A DNA stretch of 64,000 nucleotides from sequence record OR896824.1; one strand, written 5' to 3'. The notes under the pieces are model-generated. The model was not told the DNA's origin. It made no database searches and worked only from the letters and a program-made list of their open reading frames with translations. The number at the start of each line of letters is the position of its first letter. Positions within the stretch are counted from its first letter, which is position 1. This document shows, in pieces, positions 12,857 through 38,686 of this stretch. The DNA comes from Escherichia phage SmurfNell. The translations under genes were made by a program, and so were the position numbers.

Positions 12857-12885
12857 TTACTTAAAGCCCTCGAATTTAGTATAAT
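12857..12885 (+). promoter_or_regulatory. early promoter with embedded inverted repeat
   Basis: TTACTT-17-TATAAT; AAAGCCCTC (12863-12871) in the spacer is complementary to GAGGGCTTT (12904-12912) covering the RBS. Confidence 0.5.
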
Positions 12886-12912
12886 ATTCGTATTGAAAGT
12901 GAGGAGGGCTTT

Positions 12913-13191
12913 ATGCGAATTTACAACTCAAATTCATTAGGATTTAAACCTTTGAGAAAACGCGCACAATCTCCGCGTCAGATCAGAAAGGCAAATATTG
13001 GTGAGCCAGAAACTAGGCTTCCACCACCTCCGGAGCAGCGTCTAGTTTATCTAGATGAAGAATTAGCCGAAAGGGAACGCAAAGCTCAAGAAGAAATTGA
13101 GCGTAAGAAACTGTGTACTGCTCCTGCATATAACAAGGGTGGTTATCAGTACGTTTCCAGTGAGGAACAAGCTAAGATGATCGGCAGATAA
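12913..13191 (+). CDS. hypothetical protein
   Basis: 92 aa ORF with GAGGAGG RBS. Confidence 0.5.
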   Translation: MRIYNSNSLGFKPLRKRAQSPRQIRKANIGEPETRLPPPPEQRLVYLDEELAERERKAQEEIERKKLCTAPAYNKGGYQYVSSEEQAKMIGR

Positions 13192-13207
13192 TTTTTAAAA
13201 AATTCAT

Positions 13208-13236
13208 TTGCTAAACGCTTCAAAATTTCGTATAAT
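13208..13236 (+). promoter_or_regulatory. early promoter (TTGCTA-17-TATAAT)
   Basis: consensus hexamers followed by conserved ATAAATTGA box. Confidence 0.6.
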
Positions 13237-13274
13237 ATATCTCATAAATTGATCAACAAAAAGGAAAACAAATA

Positions 13275-13790
13275 ATGGCTAAGCAGAAAAACGCAAAAAC
13301 TCAGGCAGCTCCGGCAGTTAAAACTTTCGCTCAGACCGAAGCCAATCGTAAGGCTCGTCTGGAACGTCATCTGCGTAAGCATCCTACTGATGCTCAGGCT
13401 CAGACTGCCCTGAAGTCTGCGGCTCCGGTTCGCCAGAAGCCGAAGGCCAAGAACTCTACTCGCGCAACTGCTAAGCAGGTTGTGTTCATCAAGGGTGAAG
13501 GTCATAAGTCTGTACCGGTAACTCTGAGCTTTAACGGCGGTGCTGAGATGTTCGCCCGCAACGGTATGGCTCTGAAAGACTACGAAAAAGCAGTCAATCA
13601 GAAGCGTAAGCCAATGGCTGACGTAATGCGTGAATCCCGTGGACAGTTTGGCTCCGTTAAACCGAATATTTTCGGTGTAGAGTATAGCCGTGACAACGTT
13701 CGCGCTCTGTGCTACGGTATCGGTATTAAGTTTACTGGTGCTTCTGATCGTAAATCCGCTAAACCTACTCGTAAGCGTAAAGCGAAGTAA
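13275..13790 (+). CDS. basic hypothetical protein
   Basis: 171 aa, K/R/A-rich, codon usage suggests high expression. Confidence 0.55.
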   Translation: MAKQKNAKTQAAPAVKTFAQTEANRKARLERHLRKHPTDAQAQTALKSAAPVRQKPKAKNSTRATAKQVVFIKGEGHKSVPVTLSFNGGAEMFARNGMALKDYEKAVNQKRKPMADVMRESRGQFGSVKPNIFGVEYSRDNVRALCYGIGIKFTGASDRKSAKPTRKRKAK

Positions 13791-13851
13791 TGATTGATGG
13801 GGCGAAAGCCCCATATACTAACTCTTTCTCTGACTAATTAAGGATATTTTT

Positions 13852-14067
13852 ATGTTCTCTAAGAAACCACGTTCCGTTACTGAAATCGTTGCTTCCTTTA
13901 CCACTATTACTGATGAACTTCAAGCTCGTATTGAAGCTGACCAGAAAACTGCTGCTGATATTCAGAAACAGCAGGAAGAACTCGCTCTGAAACTGGCTGA
14001 AACCAATAAGAGTGAAAAATCTGCTCAAACTATTAAGGAAAATATCCTTAAACTGCTGGGCAAGTAA
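13852..14067 (+). CDS. hypothetical protein
   Basis: 71 aa helical ORF with RBS. Confidence 0.45.
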   Translation: MFSKKPRSVTEIVASFTTITDELQARIEADQKTAADIQKQQEELALKLAETNKSEKSAQTIKENILKLLGK

Positions 14068-14073
14068 TTTAAA

Positions 14074-14099
14074 TCAGGGGGCGAAAGCCCCTCTTATTT
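14074..14099 (+). terminator. rho-independent terminator
   Basis: AGGGGC-GAAA-GCCCCT hairpin followed by T-rich tract. Confidence 0.5.
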
Positions 14100-14108
14100 G
14101 GAGAAACT

Positions 14109-14321
14109 ATGCGTAACTTCGTTGCAAAGAATGATTTTAACCGTGCTAGCACTCACAAGTCTGCTAGAGACTACACTCGTCTTTCTAAACATGAGCTTCT
14201 AGAAGAAATCATGGAAGAAAACTGGGATGTTAGTGAAAATGGAACAGACCTGTTTGAAGAAGAGGAACTTCCTCTGAAAGACCCCAAACAGTGGGAGTCT
14301 ATTAAAGAGACAGCTCTTTAA
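14109..14321 (+). CDS. acidic hypothetical protein
   Basis: 70 aa ORF. Confidence 0.4.
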   Translation: MRNFVAKNDFNRASTHKSARDYTRLSKHELLEEIMEENWDVSENGTDLFEEEELPLKDPKQWESIKETAL

Positions 14322-14351
14322 TAGTTTTCTACAACAATAAAGGACATAATT

Positions 14352-15053
14352 ATGAAATTCAAGCCCTTTGGTATGCTGGACATTGAATCTCTAGGTACTC
14401 CAGGAAATTGCGGTACTACTCATATTGCAATGCCTTCTTTCGCTTTTGTAGCGATGCACGGAATTGATAAAGATCCTGATCTGGTATTCGTTACTCTAGA
14501 CGTTCAAGATCAGCTTAATGCGGGTGCTAAGGTAACTGCCTCTACTATTGCATTCTGGATGGATCAAGCTAAAAACAGTCCATCTGCGCTCCATATTATG
14601 GAGGCTCTAAATGGTCGTAATCCTAAGCTGATTGCCTTCCGTGATGGTAAGCATCACTGCACTAATGACGTAGGCTCTAATTATGCTGCCTTCTCTATGG
14701 CTCAGAACATTATGGAATTGTCTCTAGGAGATAATGCTCTGTATTACGGCAATGGCCCAGAGTTTGATATGACAATCTACTCTGCAAATACGTTCCATGC
14801 CGGAACCCATGAAGAAATAGTTCCGTGGAAATTCTGGAACTTAGGTAACGTTCGATCTTTCCGTAATCAGTGGATGCAAGCTGGTTATAGCTATAAAGAT
14901 CTAGAAGCCGAAGGTGCTAGCTGGGCAAAAGCTAAAATGGAAAAGATGGACACCATTCGTTATGGAATCTATCCTGTGAAGCATGATCCAGCATTCGATG
15001 CTTTAGTTGAAAGTTATTGTGTAGCCGTCATGATCGAAAAAATCAAAATTTGA
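14352..15053 (+). CDS. DEDD-type 3'-5' exonuclease-like protein
   Basis: LDIESLG (Exo I-like), YGNGPEFDM (Exo II-like) and HDPAFDA (Exo III-like H-x4-D) motifs. Confidence 0.45.
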   Translation: MKFKPFGMLDIESLGTPGNCGTTHIAMPSFAFVAMHGIDKDPDLVFVTLDVQDQLNAGAKVTASTIAFWMDQAKNSPSALHIMEALNGRNPKLIAFRDGKHHCTNDVGSNYAAFSMAQNIMELSLGDNALYYGNGPEFDMTIYSANTFHAGTHEEIVPWKFWNLGNVRSFRNQWMQAGYSYKDLEAEGASWAKAKMEKMDTIRYGIYPVKHDPAFDALVESYCVAVMIEKIKI

Positions 15054-15054
15054 T

Positions 15055-15083
15055 TTGCTTTCAGCTCCAAAATTCTGTATAAT
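15055..15083 (+). promoter_or_regulatory. early promoter (TTGCTT-17-TATAAT)
   Basis: consensus hexamers plus ATAAATTTGAGAGAAC box. Confidence 0.6.
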
Positions 15084-15123
15084 ATATTCATAAATTTGAG
15101 AGAACAACAAAAGGAAAATAATT

Positions 15124-15306: not shown

Positions 15307-15360
15307 TAGGCCGTTTTTAAAACAAATTCAAATCTCAAACTTCATATAAGGAAGCAAATA

Positions 15361-15999: not shown

Positions 16000-16378
16000 T
16001 AATTTAAAAGACTAGTAAATCGGTAGACGAAAGCCCAAGCATCTTACCTCGCAGCAGCGGTTGAAATACGAGGTTAAATAAGACCGCTGACCATACTATA
16101 AAGTATAATCTATTGGAGATTATGTTTATTACACCAGCCTCTTAAGCTGAACTGTAAAAACGGTCGTTGGTAGTACCAACACAACTTCAAAGATCAACGC
16201 TCAAGTATGAAAGCTGAAAAGTTAAAAGAACTCAAACTTCTAACCTTCTAAAGCTAAAAGATGCAAAGTATTCGTTGATGATTCAAACCCTAGATCAAAG
16301 GTACATGGCTCATAAGATATGGCCTGTGGCGCCTCTAGGCTGTTTATCGGTTCACTAGTCTCTCAATTTAAAAATGTA

Positions 16379-16408
16379 TTTGCTAATTAGTTTAGTTTTC
16401 TATATAAT
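16379..16408 (+). promoter_or_regulatory. early promoter (TTGCTA-18-TATAAT)
   Basis: consensus hexamers plus AAATTGATGAGACGAGG box. Confidence 0.55.
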
Positions 16409-16438
16409 ATATTTTTAAATTGATGAGACGAGGCTATT

Positions 16439-16756
16439 ATGATTTTTCATATTCTGATTGATGATGTTCGTGACCTGCATGGGATGGATATTATCATTCG
16501 AACCCCCGAAGCCGCTATTGAGTTTCTGAATACAACCGATACCACCGGACATTTCGTTTATATGGATAATGATCTGGCTGTAGATGGTATGGAAGGTTAT
16601 CAAATTCTTCGTTTACTCCTAGAATTTGGACAGAGACCCAAGAAAGTGGTACTAGTAACCTCGAACCCTGTAGCTAAGCAGAACATGCGTAATGATTTGC
16701 TTGACGAAGGGTATCAAGAAAGCCCTAATCGTATTGAGTACGATTGGCCGGAGTAA
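16439..16756 (+). CDS. hypothetical protein
   Basis: 105 aa ORF. Confidence 0.5.
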   Translation: MIFHILIDDVRDLHGMDIIIRTPEAAIEFLNTTDTTGHFVYMDNDLAVDGMEGYQILRLLLEFGQRPKKVVLVTSNPVAKQNMRNDLLDEGYQESPNRIEYDWPE

Positions 16757-16761
16757 ATAAA

Positions 16762-17211: not shown

Positions 17212-17219
17212 AAATTCGA

Positions 17220-17248
17220 TTGCTTAAAGACTTAAATTTCTGTATAAT
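17220..17248 (+). promoter_or_regulatory. early promoter (TTGCTT-17-TATAAT)
   Basis: consensus hexamers plus ATAAATTAATGAGAGG box. Confidence 0.6.
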
Positions 17249-27982: not shown

Positions 27983-28018
27983 ATTTATATAAATTGATGA
28001 GGAGAAATCCTCATCAAA

Positions 28019-28244
28019 GTTCACTAAGGTATTAGCTCGACCTAGGACTGGCTGCCAAAAAGCACGGTTGCAATTAGACCCCTAATGGCGGGGGATACTT
28101 TGCAAGAAGTTCTAGATTAGTCCACTAGATTCAGCGGCAACTGAATAGTGTATCGGGTTTGTGAAGAGCGGTTATCCTCTACTGGCTAATGTCTGAGGGT
28201 AATACGCACGCCGAGCTAATAGCCTTAGTAAACTTAAAGATTTT
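28019..28244 (+). other. non-coding leader between promoter and tRNA-Ala (possible small RNA)
   Basis: About 225 nt without an ORF, GC-balanced unlike the AT-rich spacers. Confidence 0.25.
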
Positions 28245-28318
28245 GGGGATATAGTTTAATGGTAGAACATCTGCTTTGCACGCAGAAGACGAGGGTTCAA
28301 CTCCCCCTTTCTCCACCA
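28245..28318 (+). tRNA. tRNA-Ala (anticodon UGC)
   Basis: Acceptor GGGGATA/TTTCTCC with G3-U70, anticodon arm TCTGC-TTTGCAC-GCAGA, T-loop TTCAACT, CCA. Confidence 0.6.
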
Positions 28319-28324
28319 AAATTT

Positions 28325-28400
28325 GGGGTCATAGGTTATTTGGTTAAACTTACTGCCTTGCAAGCAGTGGAACTCAGTTCAATTCTGAGTGACTCCACCA
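28325..28400 (+). tRNA. tRNA-Ala-like second copy (anticodon UGC)
   Basis: Acceptor GGGGTCA/TGACTCC with G3-U70, anticodon arm ACTGC-CTTGCAA-GCAGT, T-loop TTCAATT, CCA. Confidence 0.5.
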
Positions 28401-28413
28401 AATTAGAGGAAGC

Positions 28414-28875
28414 ATGGCTAGAACAGATATATTGGAAAGAAAGGATGAAATTCTTCTCTGGATAGAAGAAAATCAACCCAAAGCTGAAATTGCTAGAAGA
28501 TTACGCTGCAAAGTTGATACACTGAATACTTATCTGAAAAAGATGGGAATACAATATTCAGGTAACTCTGCTAGAAAAGGTTTTATACGTTCTGAGATAC
28601 AGGATGGGTATATTCCGGCAGTGAATTACTTTTACAAAAATAGCCCAATATCTTCTAGTCAGCTTAGAATAAAGATACTACGTGATGGCTTAAAACCTCA
28701 CAAATGTGAAAATTGTAATTTATCTGAATGGATGGGAGTTCCAATCCCCTTAGAGTTAGAGCATAAAGATGGTGATCATTATAATAATGAGTGGGATAAT
28801 TTAGCTTTATTATGTCCCAACTGTCATACACTAACAGATACACATTCAGGTAAGAATAAAGGAACATACGCGTGA
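28414..28875 (+). CDS. HNH endonuclease with N-terminal HTH, inserted in the tRNA island
   Basis: C-terminal HKCENCN...EHKDGDHYNNEWDNLALLCPNCH HNH motif. Confidence 0.75.
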   Translation: MARTDILERKDEILLWIEENQPKAEIARRLRCKVDTLNTYLKKMGIQYSGNSARKGFIRSEIQDGYIPAVNYFYKNSPISSSQLRIKILRDGLKPHKCENCNLSEWMGVPIPLELEHKDGDHYNNEWDNLALLCPNCHTLTDTHSGKNKGTYA

Positions 28876-28946
28876 TTGATGGAATTGGCATACATACCGT
28901 CCTTAGAAGTCGGGTTTTGAGGGTTCGAATCCCTTGTCACGCACCA
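28870..28946 (+). tRNA. tRNA with UAG anticodon (Leu-type), class I architecture
   Basis: Acceptor GCGTGAT/GTCACGC, anticodon loop CTTAGAA, 5 nt variable loop, A73, CCA; scaffold resembles the tRNA at 23314; 5' end overlaps the HNH stop. Confidence 0.5.
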
Positions 28947-28963
28947 ATTTTGTAGTAAACAAC

Positions 28964-29063
28964 GGAAGAGCAAATCGATAGGTGACGAAAACCGCTTGGA
29001 AAGTGGCTGACTTGTGAAAGCAGGCTTGAGAGTTCGAATCTCTCTTCTTCCGCCAAACAATAG
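28964..29063 (+). tRNA. tRNA-like element, about 100 nt, fold unresolved
   Basis: Complementary termini GGAAGAG/TTCTTCC, T-arm GAGAG-TTCGAAT-CTCTC, G73, CCA; too long for a standard tRNA. Confidence 0.3.
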
Positions 29064-29069
29064 AAGATA

Positions 29070-29151
29070 GGACGTAGTGGTACGTAACCGGTCTTGAAAA
29101 CCGGCCCGCTGTAGTGATACGGTGATGGTTCGACTCCATTATCTTCTGCCA
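29070..29151 (+). tRNA. tRNA-Ser (anticodon UGA), class II
   Basis: Acceptor AGAAGAT/ATCTTCT, anticodon arm CCGGT-CTTGAAA-ACCGG, long variable arm, G73, CCA. Confidence 0.7.
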
Positions 29152-29466
29152 AATCTTGAAGTATGCCGGAATCGGTAGACGGGGCTTCCTAAAGGGCGTA
29201 AGAGGAACATCCACTCCTCATAAGATACCCGAAAACGAGGCTGAGATAAATGGTCTATCTCGTGAAGGTTCAAGTCCTTCTGCTTCTTGATATTCAATGG
29301 CTCAAAGAGTAACGGTGCACCTTTCTAGAGAATTTTCTGGGCGAGAATCCAGAAGTAATCAACTAGTTGTTAGTGTGATGAGTTTCGGAGAGCCGCCACA
29401 ATTGAAGTCTTTAGAATGGGTATCGCCCTTTAGCCCCTCCGAAAGGGATAACTAGAGATTTCAATT

Positions 29467-29543
29467 GTGGCTATATCATAATTGGTTAATGATCCTGATT
29501 GTGAATCAGGCCTATGTGGATTCGAATTCCACTAGCCACCCCA
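29467..29543 (+). tRNA. tRNA-His (anticodon GUG)
   Basis: Acceptor GTGGCTA/TAGCCAC, anticodon arm CCTGA-TTGTGAA-TCAGG, C73, CCA. Confidence 0.75.
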
Positions 29544-29549
29544 AATATT

Positions 29550-29624
29550 GCGTCCTTATTTCAATGGAAAGAATGTAAAGCTACGAACTTTACGATCGGG
29601 GTTCGATTCCCTGAGGATGCACCA
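29550..29624 (+). tRNA. tRNA-Arg (anticodon ACG)
   Basis: Acceptor GCGTCCT/AGGATGC, anticodon arm GTAAAG-CTACGAA-CTTTAC, A73, CCA. Confidence 0.75.
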
Positions 29625-29648
29625 ATTAACTTATATAGGAAATAAAAT

Positions 29649-29849
29649 ATGGCTGATTTCTGCAAAGAATGCTCTATCGATATGTGGGGCAAAGATACTG
29701 GTGATCTTTCTGGTCTGATTACAGAAGCCGAAGTTAAAGAAGGCTATGGTGCTGTTGTAATCTGTGAAGGTTGTGGTATTATTCGTGTTGATCATAATGG
29801 TAAACGTCTAGAAGAACCAGATCCAATTGCCACGGTTCCTGTAGAATAA
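29649..29849 (+). CDS. zinc-ribbon small protein
   Basis: CKEC...CEGCG motifs. Confidence 0.45.
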   Translation: MADFCKECSIDMWGKDTGDLSGLITEAEVKEGYGAVVICEGCGIIRVDHNGKRLEEPDPIATVPVE

Positions 29850-29856
29850 AAATTAT

Positions 29857-29932
29857 TGGGATGTAGATCAATTGGCAGATCGTCGGCCTCTGACTCCGAA
29901 GGTTCCACGTTCGATCCGTGGCATCCCAGCCA
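29857..29932 (+). tRNA. tRNA-Gln (anticodon CUG)
   Basis: Acceptor TGGGATG/CATCCCA with U1-A72 and G73, anticodon loop CTCTGAC, CCA. Confidence 0.65.
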
Positions 29933-29938
29933 AATACT

Positions 29939-30014
29939 TGGAGAGTAGTGTAACGGTTAGCACAACGGCCTTTGACTCCGTTAATGGTAGGTTCGATTCC
30001 TCCTTCTCCAGCCA
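29939..30014 (+). tRNA. tRNA-Gln (anticodon UUG)
   Basis: Acceptor TGGAGAG/TTCTCCA with U1-A72 and G73, anticodon loop CTTTGAC, CCA. Confidence 0.65.
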
Positions 30015-30020
30015 ATTTAT

Positions 30021-30095
30021 GCGTGATTAGTTCAGTGGCTAGAATAACTGGCTTCCAACCAGTAGACACGAGTTCGACTCTCGTATCCCGCACCA
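30021..30095 (+). tRNA. tRNA-Gly (anticodon UCC)
   Basis: Acceptor GCGTGAT/ATCCCGC, anticodon arm CTGG-CTTCCAA-CCAG, T-loop TTCGACT, CCA. Confidence 0.7.
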
Positions 30096-30111
30096 AATAT
30101 AAGAAAACGTT

Positions 30112-30333
30112 ATGGACGTTTTTGAGTTTCGTAATAAAAACCCTAGTAGACGAGTTTTAATTATTGGTGAAACATATCGAGCTTATGAGCAAGAAGATGG
30201 TTCGGTTTTATTAAATGATGAAAAGCAAGGCTATAGTTTTCATCCAGAAGAAACATATGAGGAATTTCGTACTAAGTTTCTTTTACCAGACTGGCTAGCA
30301 ATAGCTGAGCAAAGAGAACCCGAAGATGGCTGA
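30112..30333 (+). CDS. hypothetical protein
   Basis: 73 aa ORF. Confidence 0.45.
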   Translation: MDVFEFRNKNPSRRVLIIGETYRAYEQEDGSVLLNDEKQGYSFHPEETYEEFRTKFLLPDWLAIAEQREPEDG

Positions 30334-30488
30334 TAATCTAAAGCTAAAGGTAGATAAACAAATGAAGTGCGTTGAGGTTGAGTTGGGTGAAGAACGTTTA
30401 AAACTCTCCTTCGAATTCTTACAACAGTTGGCTATGACAGTAATGTCTGATAAGTCTCCTGTATTTGAAAAAGAAATTCCGTTGAAAT
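30321..30488 (+). CDS. small hypothetical protein (55 aa)
   Basis: ORF overlapping the previous stop, below the track cutoff. Confidence 0.3.
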
Positions 30489-30500
30489 AACGGGTTTATT

Positions 30501-30575
30501 GCTCCTAAAGCATTGCTGGCGATGCAGTTGCCTTGTAAGCATCTGAACCGGGTTCGATTCCTGGTGGGAGCACCA
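30501..30575 (+). tRNA. tRNA-Thr (anticodon UGU)
   Basis: Acceptor GCTCCTA/TGGGAGC, D-arm GCAT..ATGC, anticodon loop CTTGTAA, T-loop TTCGATT, CCA. Confidence 0.7.
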
Positions 30576-30590
30576 AATTTAAAAATTCAT

Positions 30591-30620
30591 TTGCCTTCTC
30601 TCTTATTTCTTGTTATAATA
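30591..30620 (+). promoter_or_regulatory. early promoter (TTGCCT-18-TATAAT)
   Basis: consensus hexamers plus ATAAATTAATGAGAGGG box. Confidence 0.55.
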
Positions 30621-30649
30621 TTTATATAAATTAATGAGAGGGAAACCAA

Positions 30650-30943
30650 ATGAAACGTTATCTTTCTGTCGTGTTCCAAACTGGTGGTCAACGCTACACT
30701 TATGAATTTCCTGAGTCCTGGAAAATTAAAGAAGGTGATCAAGTTGTTGTATTAACACCTCGTGAAGGCTTCAAAGTAGTAACGGTTAAACAAGTATTTC
30801 CAAAAGATCACGAACCATCTAAGTCTATTCAGTACAAGATGATTCATGGTCTAGTTCGTAAAGTACCACGAACTGAGGTAGAAGTAGATAAGACTGGTGA
30901 AGCTAAATACCAGTATACTTCTTACTTAGATGAAATGATGTAA
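30650..30943 (+). CDS. hypothetical protein
   Basis: 97 aa ORF. Confidence 0.5.
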   Translation: MKRYLSVVFQTGGQRYTYEFPESWKIKEGDQVVVLTPREGFKVVTVKQVFPKDHEPSKSIQYKMIHGLVRKVPRTEVEVDKTGEAKYQYTSYLDEMM

Positions 30944-30944
30944 T

Positions 30945-31020
30945 GCTCTGATAGTTCAACAGGTTAGAACAGGCGACCGATAATCGTCAAATCTTGGTTC
31001 GATCCCAAGTCGGAGTACCA
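30945..31020 (+). tRNA. tRNA-Ile (anticodon GAU)
   Basis: Acceptor GCTCTGA/TCGGAGT, D-arm GTTC..GAAC, anticodon arm GGCGA-CCGATAA-TCGTC, T-loop TTCGATC, CCA. Confidence 0.65.
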
Positions 31021-31026
31021 AATTAT

Positions 31027-31099
31027 AGTTAGTTGGCAGAGCGGTTATGCACCTCCTTCATACGGAGCGACTACAGTGGTTCAAATCCACTACTAACTA
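31027..31099 (+). tRNA. tRNA with CAU anticodon (third copy), no encoded CCA
   Basis: Perfect acceptor AGTTAGT/ACTAACT, anticodon loop TTCATAC, T-arm AGTGG-TTCAAAT-CCACT; followed by ACTA rather than CCA. Confidence 0.45.
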
Positions 31100-31470
31100 C
31101 TAAACAGAGGATCAGGTAATTGTACCAGATCCTGCTGAGAAGAGAGTCCACATTCTATAAATGGCCGGGCGTGACAGCAGGAAGTAGACTGCAACTCCAT
31201 GCTATCCAGGAGTATAAATGTAGAAGCTAAGACTTTAGATAGCCATTGTCTTAGCGTGAGCAATCACGTAGTTGCAACAGACCTGGAAGATCGCAACGTT
31301 AAAATCAAAGTTCCAGTGCTTATTTATCTAATCGAGACCATCAATCTCACCGGAATGCTAGCACCCCAACAGTAGCTAGTGATTAGATAATAAGCAAGCC
31401 TGCCTTCCAGTTTTTATCTTGCTTCTGGGTTAACAAAAAGCTGAGCCAAATTCTAACATCAGGGAGATCT
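31100..31470 (+). other. structured non-coding region downstream of the tRNA island
   Basis: 370 nt without an ORF of 60 aa or more; higher GC than flanks; hairpins such as GGATCAGG...CCAGATCC. Confidence 0.25.
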
Positions 31471-31471
31471 A

Positions 31472-31840
31472 ATGAAAGCATATCAAAGTCTTAAGTCTGG
31501 CGTAATTAACATTGTTCATAACAATCAGATCATTCAACTATACTCTAAAGATGGTGAACTTAAACAGAAAGTTCTAGTTGAAGATCTAGAAGGTATCACA
31601 CCTCACTTTGACCCTGAGGCCTTTCGCATTGTAGATGTGGAAGTGGTTCCCCAAGTCGAGGGTGGTCAGCACCTAAATGTCAATGTGTTAAGCCGTGATC
31701 AGCTTTTGGATGCGCAGAAACATCCTGAAAAATATCCTCAGTTGACCATCCGTGTCTCTGGCTATGCTGTTCGATTTAACGCATTGACGCGTGAACAACA
31801 GAACGACGTTATTAGTCGTACATTTACTCAGGCGATATAA
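31472..31840 (+). CDS. grcA: autonomous glycyl radical cofactor (GrcA/YfiD-like)
   Basis: C-terminal [12 protein letters not shown]...[21 protein letters not shown] is nearly identical in pattern to the E. coli GrcA glycyl-radical domain (from memory). Confidence 0.8.
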
Positions 31841-31921
31841 TGGGGTTTGGATACGATTTCTCCCAGCTACGCAAGGTAGTCGAGCAAACTCCATTTATCT
31901 CCCAAGTTTTAGGAGAAATGT

Positions 31922-32215
31922 GTGGATCGAGCATTAAGACGCCATCACTGGCAACGTGTGAAAAACAACCGAAAGAAGTATTGGACAGTATTCCCTCATG
32001 AAGAAAGTCCTAAGCGGTTAGGCATTATTACTACCACGCCTTGCATCTGTTCTTGTTGGATGTGTGGGAATCCTCGCAAATACTATAAGAATAGTAAAGC
32101 AGGTATGAAAATCTCGGAGATTAAAAAGATGGATGCAATGATCTTAGGTATCGGATACGGCGAAGGTATTTCAAATGATGAATTTGATGGCTTCGTAGGT
32201 TTCGGTGAAGGTTAA
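31922..32215 (+). CDS. hypothetical protein
   Basis: 97 aa ORF, basic N-terminus, Cys cluster CICSCWMC. Confidence 0.4.
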   Translation: MDRALRRHHWQRVKNNRKKYWTVFPHEESPKRLGIITTTPCICSCWMCGNPRKYYKNSKAGMKISEIKKMDAMILGIGYGEGISNDEFDGFVGFGEG

Positions 32216-32223
32216 TTAATAAT

Positions 32224-32262
32224 AAACCCCGGCTATTGAATAAGTAGTCTGGGGTTTTCTTG
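32224..32262 (+). terminator. rho-independent terminator
   Basis: AACCCCGG...CTGGGGTT hairpin followed by TTCTT. Confidence 0.55.
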
Positions 32263-32279
32263 TATATAGGATTTTCGAA

Positions 32280-32465
32280 ATGAAAATTTTTAAAGTGAAC
32301 TATAGCGGCCTGTGGTTAGGTGGTACAGCTATTGTTGTTGCGGAAACTGCAGAAGAAGCAATCGAACTGGCTAGAAATCATAGAAGTTCTATAGAATTCG
32401 AGAATGTGACAGTAGAAGAACTCCCTAGCAGTGGGGTAGTATACAACGACAACGGAGATTACTAA
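32280..32465 (+). CDS. hypothetical protein
   Basis: 61 aa ORF. Confidence 0.4.
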   Translation: MKIFKVNYSGLWLGGTAIVVAETAEEAIELARNHRSSIEFENVTVEELPSSGVVYNDNGDY

Positions 32466-32523
32466 TGTTATATTTTGAAGTTCGTCCACATTAAGTTAAT
32501 TTAAAAGACTTAATGGAGGTAAT

Positions 32524-32919
32524 ATGAGCCGTACATATCGTAAACAATCTGGTGATCGTCACTGGCGTGATGCACATCGTTCTACTTATAATTTTCATAG
32601 CACTAATATCCGTATTCCGTATATCTACACGGATAGGGATGGTAAGCAGTGGAAATATTATCAAGTTCGATCCAATGAAGCATGGGCTAAAACTTGGGAT
32701 GAAATTGAGAAGGAGATTCAGGAAAATATCATTCGTAACGAGAAGAAAGATGGGCACTGGTGGGATTCTATTAGTAGAAGTGTTAAGTGGCATTCTAACA
32801 AAATGGTTCGTCAGGGAAACCGTCGTGAACTTCACCGTGTGATGAAAGATCCAGAAAATTACGACTATAATCGTGATCATGACCTGCGTAAGCGTGGGTT
32901 ATGGTGGGTTTACGACTAA
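32524..32919 (+). CDS. hypothetical protein (Trp/His/Arg-rich)
   Basis: 131 aa ORF with GGAGG RBS. Confidence 0.5.
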   Translation: MSRTYRKQSGDRHWRDAHRSTYNFHSTNIRIPYIYTDRDGKQWKYYQVRSNEAWAKTWDEIEKEIQENIIRNEKKDGHWWDSISRSVKWHSNKMVRQGNRRELHRVMKDPENYDYNRDHDLRKRGLWWVYD

Positions 32920-32936
32920 TTTCATAAATAATTCAT

Positions 32937-32965
32937 TTGCTAAAACCCTCTCCTTTTGATATAAT
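32937..32965 (+). promoter_or_regulatory. early promoter with embedded inverted repeat
   Basis: TTGCTA-17-TATAAT; CCCTCTCC in the spacer is complementary to GAGAGGG at the RBS. Confidence 0.5.
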
Positions 32966-32995
32966 ATTTATATAAATTGATGAGAGGGCTTTGAA

Positions 32996-33268
32996 ATGAA
33001 AGAAGCAGAAATTAATGAAATGGCTAGAATATTCATCGTTTCCTATATGCAAGGCAGTTGCAATAGTTTATTCGAGTCTGCTATAGTATTTCAGGAAATG
33101 TTAGCCGAGAAAGGCGTACATATGGAAGATACTGAAATTGAAGATCTTCTAATGGAAACTTGTAGTAGTGCTGAAGTCTTCCAGTGTGGTAACTGTAATT
33201 GGTGGTGTCCAGAGCATGATCGTTCTGAAGAAGGTTCCTACTGTTCCGATTGTGAAGGAGAAGAATAA
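32996..33268 (+). CDS. acidic Cys-rich protein
   Basis: CGNCNWWC...CSDC motifs. Confidence 0.45.
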   Translation: MKEAEINEMARIFIVSYMQGSCNSLFESAIVFQEMLAEKGVHMEDTEIEDLLMETCSSAEVFQCGNCNWWCPEHDRSEEGSYCSDCEGEE

Positions 33269-33567
33269 TGAATAAGTTTATTATTGCTCTAGTAATTTCA
33301 GCAGTTAGTTTCGGTTCTCTGGCATCTACCAAAGTTTCTATGAAAAATGGTAATGTTAAAGTTCAGCAGAATGGCATTACCACCGAATATGGTAAAGTAC
33401 GTGATGTAAAAGAACGTAATGGCAAAGTAGAAATATATACTAATAAAAACTTCTCTACTCCGGCTGTTACTGTTAGTAAACGTGGTGAAATCACTACTCA
33501 ACGTACTAATAGTTCTGATTCTTTTACTTGCCGTTATGACTGCGGCTTTGAAGGTGAAGATGAGTAA
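33268..33567 (+). CDS. secreted hypothetical protein
   Basis: Signal peptide MNKFIIALVISAVSFGSLAS. Confidence 0.5.
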   Translation: MNKFIIALVISAVSFGSLASTKVSMKNGNVKVQQNGITTEYGKVRDVKERNGKVEIYTNKNFSTPAVTVSKRGEITTQRTNSSDSFTCRYDCGFEGEDE

Positions 33568-33979
33568 TTTAGACCCTAGAATTAAACATGCAGTTGAAGA
33601 AATCCAAGATCAAATCGATGAGGATTTCACTGTTTGGTCAAGATTTGGTAATGGTGAAGGTTGTCAGCTTTATAGCATGAAAATGGGTATCTCGATTGAA
33701 CTTAGTATCAATCCCGAGGGTAACGTAGAAGCCCAACCCATGTTCAGTGTTCCAGGCTTCTCTGGATTTGTTATGGGCATGAAACTATGTCTACCAAATA
33801 AACATCTTTACCGTGTTATCTGTCAGCTAGAAACAATTAAACATTTCTTGCCAGAAGATAACATTAATGACTACTATCATGAAGTTGTAGCAGCTTACAT
33901 GATGAAAGAACGCAAACGTCGGAGAGCAGAACGTGAAAGAGCTAAATCTCAACAGTCTAGTACAGATTCCAGCAACTGA
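33566..33979 (+). CDS. hypothetical protein
   Basis: Internal ATG at 33566 of track ORF 33482..33979, chosen to avoid long overlap with the previous gene. Confidence 0.4.
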   Translation, partial: NLDPRIKHAVEEIQDQIDEDFTVWSRFGNGEGCQLYSMKMGISIELSINPEGNVEAQPMFSVPGFSGFVMGMKLCLPNKHLYRVICQLETIKHFLPEDNINDYYHEVVAAYMMKERKRRRAERERAKSQQSSTDSSN

Positions 33980-34229
33980 TGCTGTACTAGACTTCCTCAA
34001 GCAGGAACATATTAAGTTCTGGACTAACTATGCAGAACAGTACGAAGAAACTTCTAGTGCAATAACATTCGCGGATAAACGAATAGCTGAGTATACAGAT
34101 CCTAGAGTTAAAAATGGTATGATTACCTTACCACTTTGGGATGTAATGGAAAAGTTTGGTAAAGATTTGTGCCCAGGTTGTATACCATTGTTTGTTACTA
34201 TTCTAATTGACGAAAAGGATCTTAAATGA
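33933..34229 (+). CDS. hypothetical protein
   Basis: 98 aa ORF. Confidence 0.4.
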   Translation: MKELNLNSLVQIPATDAVLDFLKQEHIKFWTNYAEQYEETSSAITFADKRIAEYTDPRVKNGMITLPLWDVMEKFGKDLCPGCIPLFVTILIDEKDLK

Positions 34230-34510
34230 TTATCTCTCCATTTGCTTTGTGGTTTGTTATTGGTGCAGTTGTCGCGATTTACAGTCTGATTGATGATCTG
34301 TATATCTCTAAAAATAAAGATGTTATTCTTTATGTTATAAACAAATATCGTCCGCCAGAATTAGCAGAATTTGACGATGAAAAGATGTTCAAATTCATTA
34401 TGTCAGGTATGCTTATTATGGACACCTTGTTCGGGCCAGTAGCTACTTACTTCTTCTTCCGTAAAACTCGTAAGATGAAAAAGTTTCGCGCTGAAATGCA
34501 GAGCAAGTAA
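34226..34510 (+). CDS. small membrane protein
   Basis: Two predicted TM helices. Confidence 0.45.
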   Translation: MIISPFALWFVIGAVVAIYSLIDDLYISKNKDVILYVINKYRPPELAEFDDEKMFKFIMSGMLIMDTLFGPVATYFFFRKTRKMKKFRAEMQSK

Positions 34511-34626
34511 AGAACTCGCGTAGGACCGAGTTGCGTCACCTGCAACTGTTACGGATAAGGGAGTCGTGCCCCTTAGTGCGGTAAGTGGTGAGTTGGTCGC
34601 TGACCTCAACTTTAACTGGAGATATC

Positions 34627-34977
34627 ATGAGCTTTATTTTATTCATTGTAGCAGCATGGTTTATTATTGGTTTAGGCTATGCTATTGCAGTTATTCGTCA
34701 TCTGGATGAATATTCTGCTGAATGGTTTATTAAGTACCTACGTTTAGACGATCAAGAACACGAGTTCGACAGTGCTGAGGAAAGACAGGCTGTCCAGTCA
34801 ATGACTCCCAAAGAATGCTTGCTATACATGCGTGTTATTGGCTTCTTTGGTTTACTGGTTCTAGGGCCGATCGGTTCCACCATCGCCCCATACAAAGAAA
34901 CAGTTGCCGACATTAAATTATGGAGAACTGCCGGGTCGCTACGTCGTGCTAGAGAATTGAGTACCAAAGAAGATTGA
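34627..34977 (+). CDS. small membrane protein
   Basis: ATG at 34627; TM helices FILFIVAAWFIIGLGYAIAVI and GFFGLLVLGPIG. Confidence 0.45.
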   Translation: MSFILFIVAAWFIIGLGYAIAVIRHLDEYSAEWFIKYLRLDDQEHEFDSAEERQAVQSMTPKECLLYMRVIGFFGLLVLGPIGSTIAPYKETVADIKLWRTAGSLRRARELSTKED

Positions 34978-35063
34978 CATCAAGTCAACTTACTAGCAAA
35001 ATAATAATGACAAAGCCCAGCCTGCACTTTTGCGACTGGGCTATTTTTGTAATAAAATTTTAG

Positions 35064-35092
35064 TTGCATAGATGCCCAAACTTTTGTATAAT
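35064..35092 (+). promoter_or_regulatory. early promoter (TTGCAT-17-TATAAT)
   Basis: consensus-like hexamers. Confidence 0.5.
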
Positions 35093-35123
35093 ATGTTTAT
35101 AGATTGAGGCAAGAGGATTAAAT

Positions 35124-35822
35124 ATGAGAATCATTTCTAAATTCGCCGATGTGTATGACTTGCAGAACAGTTTATTCGACCCCGATCGTGTGTGGGAGCG
35201 TAAAACTGAAGAGTTACTGGTAAAAGTAACTGATGATGCAGAAAAGAACATTGTGCATAATCGCCAAGTATTTCGTGATGGTTCACTATCTTTCCGTGGC
35301 GACTTCGAATACTTTGTAAACCCACTGTTTGTTGCAGGTGAAGTTTACTGGTTACATGAGCTATACTGCTGGCATCCAGCATTTAGTTTCAAAACGTTCA
35401 ACCTCGACGCTATGTTCGATAAAATGGAAGAGATGGGATTACATGCTCGCTCTTACCTACTGGATAAGAGTCGTGTGGATGTTCGTGAAACAATGCGTGA
35501 TTTGCTTGTTGAAGCAAAACCTAAAGCAGAACGTATCTTGTCCGAGCTGCGTGTACCGATTGCATATGTGAAAGGTATTAAGAAGAACGATAACGACGAT
35601 GTTCGTAACTTCGTGATTCAGACTAACATTCGTTTCCATCAGTCCGGTATTCCGTGGCAGGAAATTGAAAGTAACTTATACCGTTTACACCAAGTTCTCG
35701 AACAGTATATCTTCGGTGTACTAGGAACTGGTGAGCCTGATATGATTAAAGTATCAGATAAAGACAGGTTAGCAGCACATGGATTTGATACAAAAACTTC
35801 TTTCAGGAATATGGCAAGGTAA
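35124..35822 (+). CDS. hypothetical protein
   Basis: 232 aa ORF. Confidence 0.55.
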   Translation: MRIISKFADVYDLQNSLFDPDRVWERKTEELLVKVTDDAEKNIVHNRQVFRDGSLSFRGDFEYFVNPLFVAGEVYWLHELYCWHPAFSFKTFNLDAMFDKMEEMGLHARSYLLDKSRVDVRETMRDLLVEAKPKAERILSELRVPIAYVKGIKKNDNDDVRNFVIQTNIRFHQSGIPWQEIESNLYRLHQVLEQYIFGVLGTGEPDMIKVSDKDRLAAHGFDTKTSFRNMAR

Positions 35823-36228
35823 GTGGTATATCCTGGGAGCAGGTATAGCGATAGGCATCGGATTCGGTGCTTATCACTTAGTAAATAAGGTAGAAACTCT
35901 AGCAGGTGATCTTGCAGTAGCTACTAAAAAGATCTCTTCTCTAGAGACTTCTCTTAATAATGTGAAAGCTGAGAGCGAACTTCGTGAGACTCGTATGAAT
36001 CAGTATTTCACAATGAATAATGTTTCCCAAGCAGATCTAGACAAGAAAATTAGTCAGCTTGATAAAGCGCTTAGTCGTCAAGACATTATAGCTGCAAAGC
36101 CTGGATTGGTTACATTAATTGCTAAAAAGCAGAGTAAGGAGTTCGAGGAAAGATTAGCATGTTTAACTGGAAACTTGGAGTACTGCTCGCAGCCGCAATC
36201 ACAATCACAGGCTGTGCAGAAGAAATAA
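35779..36228 (+). CDS. i-spanin-like (Rz-like) membrane protein
   Basis: N-terminal TM helix WYILGAGIAIGIGFGAY followed by a coiled-coil periplasmic domain; 3' end overlaps the lipoprotein gene in another frame. Confidence 0.45.
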   Translation: MDLIQKLLSGIWQGKWYILGAGIAIGIGFGAYHLVNKVETLAGDLAVATKKISSLETSLNNVKAESELRETRMNQYFTMNNVSQADLDKKISQLDKALSRQDIIAAKPGLVTLIAKKQSKEFEERLACLTGNLEYCSQPQSQSQAVQKK

Positions 36229-36512
36229 AACCAGAGCCTTCACATGAGTTAAAGCAAGCTCATGTTGACTGGCCCAAAGGACTTCAGCCGTGTAGCTTTG
36301 ATTTCAAATTCGAAAAGAAATTAGCTACAAATGGTGAAGATGGCGTAGTAGTTGTTGTACCATACAAAGATTGGAATGCAAAAGCAAAATGCGAGGAAGC
36401 AGTTTACTCTTACATTTCACGGCTGACTAGTATGGTTTGCTTCTACCGCCAAGATTTACAAGAAAAACGTTGCTTAGTTTACTATCCACCCATTACAAAT
36501 AGGAAAGATTAA
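36159..36512 (+). CDS. o-spanin-like (Rz1-like) lipoprotein
   Basis: Signal peptide with lipobox LLAAAITITGC; start embedded in the preceding gene. Confidence 0.45.
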   Translation: MFNWKLGVLLAAAITITGCAEEIKPEPSHELKQAHVDWPKGLQPCSFDFKFEKKLATNGEDGVVVVVPYKDWNAKAKCEEAVYSYISRLTSMVCFYRQDLQEKRCLVYYPPITNRKD

Positions 36513-37261
36513 TGTCAGTATTAGTCGGTTTACATGGTGAGGCTGGTGCAGGGAAAGATACCGTTGCAAAATTAATGATTGACTGGTGCAATGACACGTA
36601 TCCAACGTGTTTATCCCGTCGTTACAGTTTTGCTAAACCCGTTTACGAACTTGCATCCGTAATCCTCGGGGTAACTCCAGAGTTTCTGGGAGAGCGCAGG
36701 GGAAAAGAGATTAGTCAATGGTTTACAGTGACTCAATCTCAATTGGAGCGAGCTAGAGACGTATGGTTTAAGTACGGTATTGATAAGTTTGAGGACTTCT
36801 CGTACATTTGGCCGATTTTTGAAGGAAAATACCTTGATCCTCAGCAATTGATTGGACAAGAAGATGATGCACTCTATAGTGTGTTTATCTCCCCAAGAAA
36901 GATGCTACAGCTTGTAGGTACTGAGTTAGGAAGGCAGCTGGTGCATGAACGCATTTGGCTCATAATTCTGGAGCAATCCATCGCTAAAGACGACCCAGAC
37001 GTCGCAATAGTTACAGATGTGAGATTCCCTAATGAAGGAGAGTTAATCCGAGAAACCAATCATCTAGATATGGATTCTTTGTTGATAAATGTAGTACCAG
37101 CAGAGCAGGAATACACTATTAAGACAGATCATCCGTCTGAAAAAGGTATCCCAGCTAAATACATAATCCATGAACTGGTGAATCCGTTCATCGGTATGGA
37201 TAACCTTAAACTAGAAGTGTATAACTTCTGTGACTTAGAGCTAGAACCACTAGTTGGATAA
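36512..37261 (+). CDS. deoxynucleoside monophosphate kinase
   Basis: N-terminal P-loop VGLHGEAGAGKDT resembling the T4 gp1-type dNMP kinase motif. Confidence 0.55.
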   Translation: MSVLVGLHGEAGAGKDTVAKLMIDWCNDTYPTCLSRRYSFAKPVYELASVILGVTPEFLGERRGKEISQWFTVTQSQLERARDVWFKYGIDKFEDFSYIWPIFEGKYLDPQQLIGQEDDALYSVFISPRKMLQLVGTELGRQLVHERIWLIILEQSIAKDDPDVAIVTDVRFPNEGELIRETNHLDMDSLLINVVPAEQEYTIKTDHPSEKGIPAKYIIHELVNPFIGMDNLKLEVYNFCDLELEPLVG

Positions 37262-37273
37262 TTAAGGATCACT

Positions 37274-37873
37274 ATGACTAATAAGAAAGAAGAAAAGACT
37301 AACCTGTTCCACTCCGTTCACCAATCTAACGAGTATACTTTTTTCTTTGACGAGGAACTCGGGCCAGCAGATGAGTATCGTGACTTATCTATGATCCTGG
37401 TGCAGGCTAATGAAGGAGATGTCATTAATCTGATGATTAATGGGCCTGGTGGTTATGTTGATACTGCTGCACAGCTATCTAACCTGATCGCTAACTGTCG
37501 TGGAACGGTTATTGGACACCTGCTCGGTCCTAGTGCTTCTGCTTACTGCACAATCTTCCTGTCTTGCCACGGTTGGGTTGTTCATCCACACTCTACGCTT
37601 ATGGGACATACGTTCTCTGGCGGATTCTGTGAGAAGGGTCAAGAAATCAAGAAAGCCTATGAATCTTACAATCAGTTTGTAGAAGATATGATGCTCGATA
37701 TCTACTTCCCGTTCTTCTCCATCGAAGAAATTGAGGATATGGTAAAAGAGAACAAGAATATCTATCTCAACAGCAAGGAAATCAATAAGCGTATTGAGAA
37801 ATTGGCAGCATACCGCGAGGAGCAATTCAGCAAAGCTCAATGTCCTCACCCTGAGGAACATGGAGAAGTGTAA
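37274..37873 (+). CDS. ClpP-like serine protease
   Basis: INGPGG, GPSASAYC (Ser) and MGHTFSGG (His) align with the ClpP INSPGG...QAASMG...MIHQPLGG pattern. Confidence 0.55.
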   Translation: MTNKKEEKTNLFHSVHQSNEYTFFFDEELGPADEYRDLSMILVQANEGDVINLMINGPGGYVDTAAQLSNLIANCRGTVIGHLLGPSASAYCTIFLSCHGWVVHPHSTLMGHTFSGGFCEKGQEIKKAYESYNQFVEDMMLDIYFPFFSIEEIEDMVKENKNIYLNSKEINKRIEKLAAYREEQFSKAQCPHPEEHGEV

Positions 37874-37881
37874 GTAGTTTT

Positions 37882-37912
37882 AAGCCAGAGTTTAACGACT
37901 CTGGCTTTTCTT
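37882..37912 (+). terminator. rho-independent terminator
   Basis: AAGCCAGAG...CTCTGGCTT hairpin followed by TTCTTTTG. Confidence 0.6.
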
Positions 37913-37976
37913 TTGCCTAAAATTCTTCTTGACAACGACAAAATTTTGTGCTCCAGAAGTGATCTTTAAAAACACG

Positions 37977-38005
37977 TTGTAATTTTCCTCTAGAATTAGT
38001 ATAAT
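37977..38005 (+). promoter_or_regulatory. promoter with embedded inverted repeat
   Basis: TTGTAA-17-TATAAT; CCTCTAGA in the spacer is complementary to TTAGAGGAGG at the RBS of the holin gene. Confidence 0.45.
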
Positions 38006-38029
38006 GGTAATGGTTAGAGGAGGTTACAA

Positions 38030-38686
38030 GTGGAAAAGTTTCTACAACTATTAACGGTACTGCTCCAAGAAGCGAAAGATCCAGCATCGCTTCTTAAACG
38101 TCTGCTAACTATCTTAGTTGCTGTCATTATTTTCTTATTTGTTAGTAATACTAGCGAGGTGATGTCGTTCTTAAAGACTTTCTCCACGTCTGCGGTTTTA
38201 CAGGATGTTCAAACCCAAAGGATAGATAACTTTCCTAATATAGCGAGAGAAAAGAGCATGGTTCTTTTCTCCCAGACGGGTGCGGATGCTGTTTTTGTAG
38301 TCAAGTATAAACCCGATGCTATCAATGATTATTCCAACATTATTGCATGGGAAAGCAATGCGCAATTAGATAGGGCTGACTTGGCCGATAAAGCAGTAAA
38401 TAAGACGTCTGAGATGTATAGACGTCACCTAGAAGGTTTTAACTACGCTTCGGATTTAACTGTAAAGATTAATAAATACATGGGGGCAAATATCCCTTCG
38501 TTTAAAAACGTAACATTTAATTATATTTACACGTGTCCGTACTTCAACCTAAACAACATCTATGCTGGATATATTGGTGTTGCTTGGAAGGATAAACCCG
38601 TAGATAATGCCGACTCGGAACAATTTAACGAGTACTTAACAAAGCTCTGTTCACCACAGCAGAGATCATTAGGTAGATCAATATGA
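38030..38686 (+). CDS. holin-like membrane protein
   Basis: GTG start after GAGGAGG RBS; N-terminal TM helix LLTILVAVIIFLFV; stop overlaps the endolysin start. Confidence 0.45.
   Translation: MEKFLQLLTVLLQEAKDPASLLKRLLTILVAVIIFLFVSNTSEVMSFLKTFSTSAVLQDVQTQRIDNFPNIAREKSMVLFSQTGADAVFVVKYKPDAINDYSNIIAWESNAQLDRADLADKAVNKTSEMYRRHLEGFNYASDLTVKINKYMGANIPSFKNVTFNYIYTCPYFNLNNIYAGYIGVAWKDKPVDNADSEQFNEYLTKLCSPQQRSLGRSI

Follow-up and report, generated by a model that had tools for sequence, protein, structure and literature searches.

Several early promoters of Escherichia phage SmurfNell are embedded in long imperfect inverted repeats that join the promoter to the ribosome-binding site (RBS) of the following gene. 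Within the 64,000-nucleotide stretch of sequence record OR896824.1 that was analyzed (hereafter, the window), the upstream arm of each repeat is formed by the UP region, the -35 hexamer and the first half of the promoter spacer, and the downstream arm by the Shine-Dalgarno (SD) sequence, often continuing through the start codon. In RNA transcribed from further upstream, the two arms are predicted to form a hairpin that hides the ribosome-binding site, whereas RNA begun at the embedded promoter would keep this site open. The reading considered most probable, at roughly 0.6, is that these promoter-embedded hairpins act as translational insulation from read-through transcription, of the kind described for the genes e, soc, 49 and I-TevI of phage T4. 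A sequence-only reading of the same DNA had listed three promoters at which a spacer octamer complements the downstream RBS and had presented this as a recurrent promoter architecture; all three were confirmed, but the strongest site and a fifth one had been overlooked, and the arrangement is confined to about 5 of 24 promoter-gene pairs rather than being general.

The five promoters have their -10 hexamers on the plus strand at 12880 (site 1), 32960 (site 2), 38000 (site 3), 30614 (site 4, the strongest) and 16403 (site 5). The predicted helices are imperfect, 16–23 bp long, and connect the UP/-35/spacer region with the SD and start codon, with arms about 40 nucleotides apart and, at every site, the -10 hexamer and the expected transcription start inside a loop of about 30 nucleotides. 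Being upstream of the -10 hexamer, the 5′ arm is absent from own-promoter RNA, and both arms are present in RNA from upstream, as had been claimed. Because the -10 hexamer is in the loop, it could be inactivated with both arms left intact. In the predicted minimum free energy (MFE) and centroid folds, as well as in the opening energies, the SD and/or the start codon is base-paired in upstream-initiated RNA. The MFE values of the read-through RNAs were -20.0, -18.5, -22.1, -24.1 and -28.1 kcal/mol for sites 1 to 5, respectively (z = -3.5, -3.4, -2.5, -5.7 and -5.1), whereas the own-promoter RNAs of sites 1–4 showed no unusual structure (z from -0.4 to -1.1).

The cost of opening the initiation region, taken as the free energy required to hold the stretch from -15 to +4 around the start codon free of pairing, was compared between own-promoter and read-through RNA, and rose from 5.3 to 15.3 kcal/mol at 12880, from 6.7 to 24.6 kcal/mol at 30614, from 4.9 to 14.3 kcal/mol at 32960 and from 6.4 to 14.7 kcal/mol at 38000; the median difference over 24 promoters was 3.4 kcal/mol. 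The earlier proposal that the RBS is sequestered in read-through RNA alone is thus borne out by the folding predictions. T4 gene e, assessed by the same measure, scores 16.4 when the RNA is the long early one and 2–4 when it has a late-promoter 5′ end; its hairpin is reported to cut lysozyme synthesis about 100-fold (PMC3014915), and the occlusion predicted here thus compares in size with that of an experimentally validated hairpin.

Genome setting and anatomy of the hairpins

The window covers the early region of a T5-like siphovirus (Demerecviridae), and a piece of about 2 kb around site 1 shows 99.3% identity to Salmonella phage OSY-STA, Escherichia phage IrmaTschudi and many other T5-like siphoviruses. 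The early region itself (11–47 kb) contains small open reading frames (ORFs), about 30 transfer RNA (tRNA) genes and about 25 canonical T5 early promoters, which are located approximately 30 nucleotides 5′ of a start codon and consist of an A-tract, TTGCTw, a 17-nucleotide spacer, TATAAT and an ATAAATT box. The published T5 early consensus comprises an A-rich -43 region, TTGCTw, a spacer of 17–18 nucleotides, TATAATA and TAAATT at +7 (PMC3326045, PMC7472727); an ATATT discriminator marks T5 early promoters, and how T5 times its gene classes using a single host polymerase has yet to be explained (PMC7472727). Sites 1, 2, 4 and 5 have the same architecture as these canonical promoters, for which the descriptions found treat the spacer as promoter sequence only and do not mention complementarity to the RBS. 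The promoter at site 3, which precedes a holin gene, departs from the early consensus in its discriminator (GGTAAT) and in lacking the TAAATT box. Putative promoters are annotated at all four sites orthologous to sites 1–4 in the T5 record AY692264. A search of the whole window against Rfam at gathering thresholds returned tRNA matches only, and the hairpins match no cis-regulatory family. Partial self-complementarity between the -10 region and the ATAAATT box that follows it (UAUAA...UUAUA) gives rise, at 32960–32980 and in further early promoters, to a small hairpin inside the loop of the large structures.

At site 1, the 5′ arm (12849–12871) is made up of an outer AAAUUC (12849–12854) and an inner UAAAGCCCUC (12862–12871), the latter corresponding to the last base of the -35 hexamer (TTACTT, 12857–12862) and spacer positions 1–9. 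The -10 hexamer TATAAT (12880–12885) is in the hairpin loop, and the 3′ arm (12904–12922) contains GAGGGCUUUA (12904–12913), which extends from the SD through the first base of the ATG, and an outer GAAUUU (12917–12922). The spacer sequence AAAGCCCTC (12863–12871) is the exact reverse complement of GAGGGCTTT (12904–12912), which adjoins the ATG at 12913, and the read-through helix combines AAAUUC/GAAUUU with UAAAGCCCUC/GAGGGCUUUA. The gene that follows (12913–13191) encodes 92 amino acids (phrog_4593, a T5p088 homolog). The -35 hexamer, TTACTT in the window, is TTGCTT in all 27 close relatives examined, a probable down-mutation.

Site 4, the strongest of the sites, has its 5′ arm at 30586–30607, comprising UUCAUUUG (30586–30593) and UUCUCUCUUAUU (30596–30607) and overlapping the -35 hexamer TTGCCT (30591–30596) and spacer positions 1–11. 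With the -10 hexamer (30614–30619) in the loop, these segments pair with the 3′ arm (30633–30654), namely AAUGAGAGGGAA (30633–30644), which contains the SD, and CAAAUGAA (30647–30654), which contains the start codon at 30650, giving 20 bp over the SD and AUG. The gene (30650–30943; 97 amino acids, phrog_4760, a T5p056 homolog) is directly followed by tRNA-Ile.

Site 2 shows the same layout. Its 5′ arm (32932–32952) consists of an outer UUCAUUU (32932–32938) and an inner AAAACCCUCUC (32942–32952), which is the last base of the -35 hexamer (TTGCTA, 32937–32942) plus spacer positions 1–10; the -10 hexamer (32960–32965) is in the loop, and the 3′ arm (32982–33000) contains GAGAGGGCUUU (32982–32992) and AAAUGAA (32994–33000), with the start codon at 32996. 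CCCTCTC (32946–32952) exactly complements GAGAGGG (32982–32988), AAA/TTT extends the helix past a single A·C mismatch, and UUCAUUU/AAAUGAA pairs across the start codon. The gene (32996–33268) encodes 90 amino acids (phrog_2855).

At site 3, the 5′ arm (37977–37993) begins with UUGUAAUUU, composed of the -35 hexamer TTGTAA (37977–37982) and three further nucleotides, and continues after a U bulge with CCUCUAG, which is spacer positions 5–11. Beyond the -10 hexamer (38000–38005), it pairs with the 3′ arm UUAGAGGAGGUUACAA (38014–38029), which takes in the SD and the whole interval up to the GTG start at 38030, so that the helix of 16 bp ends at the GTG. The gene (38030–38686) encodes a T-type holin (PF11031, E = 2.6e-114), and the endolysin gene comes next; the product is clearly homologous to the T4 holin t family (Phage_holin_T), sharing about 30% identity with T4-like t genes, and is labeled a "putative lysis protein" in the T5 GenBank record. 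In the hairpin region of site 5 (16355–16432), the 5′ arm (16358–16380) lies upstream of and reaches into the -35 hexamer (16380–16385), and pairs with 16406–16429, which covers the end of the -10 hexamer (16403–16408), the initial transcribed region and the SD region. The gene (16439–16756) encodes a protein with a cREC_REC (cyclic-phosphate processing receiver) domain (PF20274, E = 1e-15).

The complementarity between spacer and RBS noted earlier is present at all three promoters that were listed, with nine of nine, seven of seven and seven Watson-Crick pairs at sites 1, 2 and 3. The octamers quoted for it require some correction: the one at site 1 pairs exactly, at site 2 the eighth base is unpaired, which leaves 7 bp, and at site 3 CCTCTAGA and TAGAGGAGG are not full complements, the contiguous match being TCCTCTA/TAGAGGA (7 bp). 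These elements are real, but each is only the center of a longer helix to which the -35/UP region and the start codon also contribute.

The supply of read-through RNA was judged from the surrounding sequence. A scan of 28000–39500 found no terminator-like site upstream of sites 2 and 4, and inspection of the intergenic sequence at site 1 shows none; read-through from tandem promoters is expected at these three sites. Site 4 begins 11 nucleotides after tRNA-Thr (30501–30575), and its 97-amino-acid ORF, with its own promoter, is wedged before tRNA-Ile and tRNA-Met (30501–31100) in the cluster of about 30 tRNA genes; because the site lies between tRNA-Thr and tRNA-Ile, the long RNA of this ORF would be a tRNA precursor. 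The situation differs at the holin gene, where a predicted intrinsic terminator (37882–37907, plus strand; an 11-bp stem followed by a T-run) is located after a Clp-protease-like gene and upstream of the holin promoter. With both this terminator and the hairpin, the holin gene would be doubly insulated. Its promoter lacks the ATATT early discriminator in addition to the ATAAATT box, unlike the early-looking promoters of sites 1, 2, 4 and 5, and may belong to another temporal class, in which case the parallel with T4 gene e would be complete. Between the terminator and this promoter, a conserved TTGACA-N12-T(A/G)TG(C/A)T (37929–37952) occurs with the same 12-nucleotide spacing in T5, Spivey, Eos and PM135, which represent four genera. 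It was considered as a distal holin promoter feeding both arms and was rejected, since a spacing of 12 nucleotides in all genera is too short for sigma-70.

Chance controls and comparison with related phages

By a narrow criterion, in which the spacer is compared with the 20 nucleotides before the start codon and a match requires at least seven contiguous Watson-Crick pairs, 3 of the 24 native pairs (exactly the three listed in the sequence-only reading) scored positive, against 3.1% of 552 swapped pairs, a marginal excess (binomial P ~0.04). The duplex energies at 12880, 30614, 32960 and 38000 were within the top 1% of the swapped pairs. A second control exchanged the 70 nucleotides upstream of the -10 hexamer among the 24 promoters, thereby preserving composition and shared motifs. 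At the same four sites, the native upstream region surpassed 22–23 of the 23 foreign ones, and at site 5 the native value was 12.1 against a swapped mean of 7.3, with none of 23 swaps as high. Four sites in the window exceeded the swapped mean by more than 5 kcal/mol where 0.88 were expected (permutation P = 0.006). Applied to T5 and to Klebsiella phage Spivey, with 14 promoter-gene pairs each, the test gave four such sites in each phage, a count reached in none of 5000 permutations; in Proteus phage PM135, a genome-wide test yielded one very strong case and a count that was not significant (P = 0.13). Averaged over all 24 promoters of the window, native and swapped values did not differ, and the hairpin is thus a property of a subset of promoters, about one in five. 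When 64 gene starts of the T5 early region were ranked by occlusion of the ribosome site, four of the top five proved to be embedded in a promoter (hypergeometric P ~0.01). The third most occluded of these 64 genes is nrdA (L001:2591; 18.3 kcal/mol), which has no promoter before it and may be under a separate translational control.

T5 keeps all four structures of sites 1–4, with read-through minus own differences of 12.7, 17.0, 12.9 and 8.7. Among 107 loci retrieved from IMG/VR, representing 86 distinct variants, the difference was at least 5 kcal/mol in every variant; loss of the complementarity in related phages, named earlier as an outcome that would speak against the idea, was not observed. 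The arms of site 2 exist in several versions in the same register, namely the window type AAAACCCTCTC/GAGAGGGCTTT, the common type AAACCTCTCTT/GAGAGAGGTTT of 11 bp, the T5 type GAGGGAGGTTT with two G·U pairs and the L102 type AAAGAGCCTCT/AGAGGGCTTT. Compensatory changes were found at one pair from U-A to C-G and at another from C-G to G-C, and 97% of the cells in the alignment are paired, compared with 34–65% when the partner is slid by 1–3 columns.

The site 2 promoter is also mobile with respect to the gene behind it. Many relatives match the site 2 region only up to the start codon, from which point the downstream gene changes; at loci L088–L115, at least three unrelated genes stand behind the same promoter/RBS cassette, with the switch at ATGAAA, and in Klebsiella phages the match is limited to the cassette itself, of about 70 bp. 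On the basis of these alignments, the cassette behaves as a recombination module, sharing the gene shuffling of promoter-early stem-loop (PeSL) cassettes. In one locus (L095:1865–1940; IMG/VR 3300045988_054024), the cassette forms a perfect 24-bp stem (MFE -38.9), the whole spacer and the -10 hexamer having been turned into the complement of the leader, directly after an extra ORF of 184 amino acids inserted upstream; this looks like a palindrome-perfecting template switch.

In other genera, comparable hairpins occur with unrelated arm sequences, and such recurrence is stronger comparative evidence than conservation within the genus. Five of the 14 promoters of Spivey (Sugarlandvirus) had a difference above 10; the promoter of its homing HNH endonuclease gene contains a perfect 12-bp pair, TGTCCTCCATTT/AAATGGAGGACA (MFE -31.5, z = -5.8), and its holin promoter contains AACUUCCUC/GAGGAGGUU. 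Proteus phage PM135 (Novosibvirus) has UUGCAAAACUCCUUAA/UUAGGGAGUUUUUCAA (z = -5.4).

Several observations weigh against insulation as the function of these hairpins. Within the genus, variation is small, and uncompensated single arm changes occur in the isolates L006, L009, L062, L100, L112, L050 and L051; about half of the single arm substitutions keep pairing through G·U, which equals the expectation from transitions alone and gives no sign of selection. When spacer columns of a hairpin promoter and of the next hairpin-free promoter were compared in the same 27 genomes, both were nearly invariant, with indels blurring the columns, so that hairpin-free promoters are equally conserved and conservation alone is uninformative. 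The within-genus evidence for selection is consequently modest. More distant homologs of the site 1 gene (L029–L034, 61–67% identity) are without an equivalent promoter or hairpin, and the holin hairpin fades with distance: T5, the window and Spivey show it clearly, Eos and PM135 only weakly, and Vibrio phage Kronos not at all. Approximately 20% of the promoters have the structure at all. At site 3, the apparently strong terminator just upstream would limit read-through to terminator leakage, and in four of the five cases the embedded and upstream promoters seem to share one early class, leaving no evident temporal logic there. In addition, folding is slowed by the loop of about 30 nucleotides, and ribosomes could bind co-transcriptionally before the hairpin has formed.

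Competing explanations

Two alternatives are each regarded as unlikely. The first holds that the complementarity is a by-product without function, in which pyrimidine-rich variants of a common T5 spacer (a.gcTTcaaa) happen to match purine-rich SD sequences, and quasi-palindromes are extended by template switching or cassette recombination without regulatory selection. The marginal excess under the narrow spacer criterion, the uncompensated arm mutations, the L095 stem with its resemblance to a template-switch product and the coincidence of cassette borders with recombination breakpoints all suit this explanation, as does the fact that common motifs of the UP/-35 and start regions pair by default (TTCATTTG with CAAATGAA). 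The swap controls speak against it, since they retain composition and common motifs and yet lose the effect; moreover, the perfect complements of 9, 12 and 17 nucleotides include non-SD bases such as GCTTT and ACA. Recurrence with different sequences in four genera, persistence in 86 of 86 ortholog variants and the preponderance of promoter-embedded sites among the most occluded T5 ribosome sites are likewise at odds with an accident of composition.

The second alternative, to which we give just as little credence, is that the hairpins are elements of RNA processing or stability: substrates of ribonuclease (RNase) III, or RNase E sites in the AU-rich loop, at which polycistronic early RNA or tRNA-precursor RNA is cut, as RNase III does with T7 early RNA, or else protective 5′/3′ stem-loops, with SD occlusion secondary or relieved by cleavage. 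RNase III acts on about 20 bp of largely continuous double-stranded RNA, and stems of 16–23 bp interrupted by small internal loops would suit it, sites 4 and 5 reaching 20–23 bp and the L095 stem a perfect 24 bp; the loops are AU-rich, and site 4 lies between two tRNA genes, where a precursor RNA needs processing. The 3′ arm, however, is always the SD/start region, pointing to translation as the target, and the arms invariably flank the transcription start, a placement for which processing has no need. No evidence that RNase III processes T5 RNA came from the literature searched. Processing is in any case compatible with translational insulation and does not exclude it.

A role as attenuators or terminators of upstream transcription, resembling PeSLs and limiting build-up from tandem strong promoters, is quite improbable. 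In its favor, PeSLs join an early promoter to a terminating stem-loop and mediate cassette shuffling (PMC2839356), the site 2 cassettes are likewise recombination breakpoints, and the 3′ arm ends in UUU at sites 1 and 2. The scan of 28000–39500, which leaves site 1 outside its range, gave no terminator-like call at sites 2, 3 and 4: the only terminator in it is that at 37882–37907, none falls at the arms, and the hairpins were rejected as intrinsic terminators. Their loops of about 30 nucleotides and lack of a proper U-tract are unlike intrinsic terminators, and PeSL stems are compact GGGG...CCCC hairpins wholly within the promoter, with the SD excluded. Least probable is an action at the DNA level, through operator half-sites for a phage regulator or cruciforms modulating the promoter; although the inverted repeats bracket the -10 hexamer and class switching in T5 still lacks an explanation (PMC7472727), each site has arm sequences of its own and there is no common operator, arms about 40 bp apart make cruciform extrusion unfavorable, and the G·U pairs of the helices work only in sense RNA.

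Proposed insulation from read-through and its relation to known systems

The analysis shows the sequences and predicted folds, the statistical excess and specificity, the conservation and the recurrence in relatives, which make translational insulation the best-supported reading; hairpin formation in vivo, lowered translation and abundant read-through RNA are what we infer. According to this model, RNA from upstream, whether from tandem early promoters without terminators, from tRNA-cluster transcripts or from terminator leakage, would carry both arms and fold into the 16–23 bp hairpin, the upstream half of the promoter acting as an anti-SD sequence. RNA begun at the embedded promoter would lack the 5′ arm, so that translation would be shielded from upstream transcription and governed by the promoter of the gene itself. 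The targets would be the T-type holin and several small proteins and, in relatives, also a homing endonuclease.

Judged by analogy, the mechanism is not new in kind. In T4, e (lysozyme), soc, 49 and I-TevI have an inhibitory hairpin at the translation initiation region, with the promoter inside the 5′ strand (PMC3014915). As in the T5-like sites, the SD and/or start codon is paired in the long upstream-initiated RNA, the promoter lies in the DNA of the 5′ arm or loop, and the gene's own RNA lacks the 5′ arm, this RNA being translated in T4 and predicted to be so here. A transcription start between the arms, a mark of the T4 type, is predicted at the T5-like sites from the position of the -10 hexamer in the loop and from the putative promoter annotation of T5. 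The predicted opening costs are similar (16.4 against about 3 in T4 e; 14–25 against 5–7 here), and the kinds of target are shared, a lysis gene (holin here, lysozyme in T4) and a homing endonuclease (in Spivey, and I-TevI in T4). The differences lie in the family, Demerecviridae siphoviruses as opposed to Straboviridae; in the promoters, which here are sigma-70 -35/-10 promoters with an arm inside the spacer and in T4 are late TATAAATA promoters; and in the loops, which are long here (about 30 nucleotides), unlike the T4 cases; in the T5-like phages, the function is a prediction. Moreover, since upstream and embedded promoters look to be of the same early class at four of the five sites, insulation or dosage would be the likely role here, as opposed to the early/late timing of T4.

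PeSL cassettes, known from RB49, phi1 and other T4-type phages (PMC2839356, PMC4122927), are similar in combining a strong sigma-70-like early promoter, an AT-rich upstream region and a stem-loop before small ORFan genes, and in having cassette borders that serve as recombination points, as at site 2. They differ in structure: a PeSL has a compact GC-rich terminator hairpin in or next to the promoter, with the SD outside, whereas in the T5-like sites the stem spans the transcription start, its arms lie about 40 nucleotides apart and the 3′ arm contains the SD. A literature search that was poor in older T5 work returned the promoter consensus and gpT5.026 only, with no description of a hairpin or of RBS complementarity at T5-like promoters, and the feature has apparently not yet been described in these phages.

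A broader generalization is put forward tentatively, with the odds leaning against it. Across the Demerecviridae, one-fifth to one-third of the early promoters might be "self-bypassing" translational insulators whose upstream half is an anti-SD sequence, such that the holin, homing endonucleases and ORFans of the tRNA cluster are translated only from own-promoter RNA despite massive tandem read-through. The timing of lysis by the holin might then depend on promoter choice, as for T4 lysozyme, and the cassettes might double as recombination modules that move promoter, anti-SD and SD together.

If translational insulation is the correct reading, the control of T5 gene expression would include an additional post-transcriptional layer, in which protein output depends on which promoter made the RNA. 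This would explain how a holin gene can reside in a heavily transcribed early region without premature lysis, and would mean that a phage family unrelated to that of T4 came independently, by way of sigma-70 promoters, to the arrangement that T4 uses for lysozyme and I-TevI. The strong early promoters of T5 have become classic tools, for instance in the pQE vectors. Promoter cassettes of the T5 type would bring their own anti-RBS with them, which would matter for their reuse in constructs with upstream transcription.

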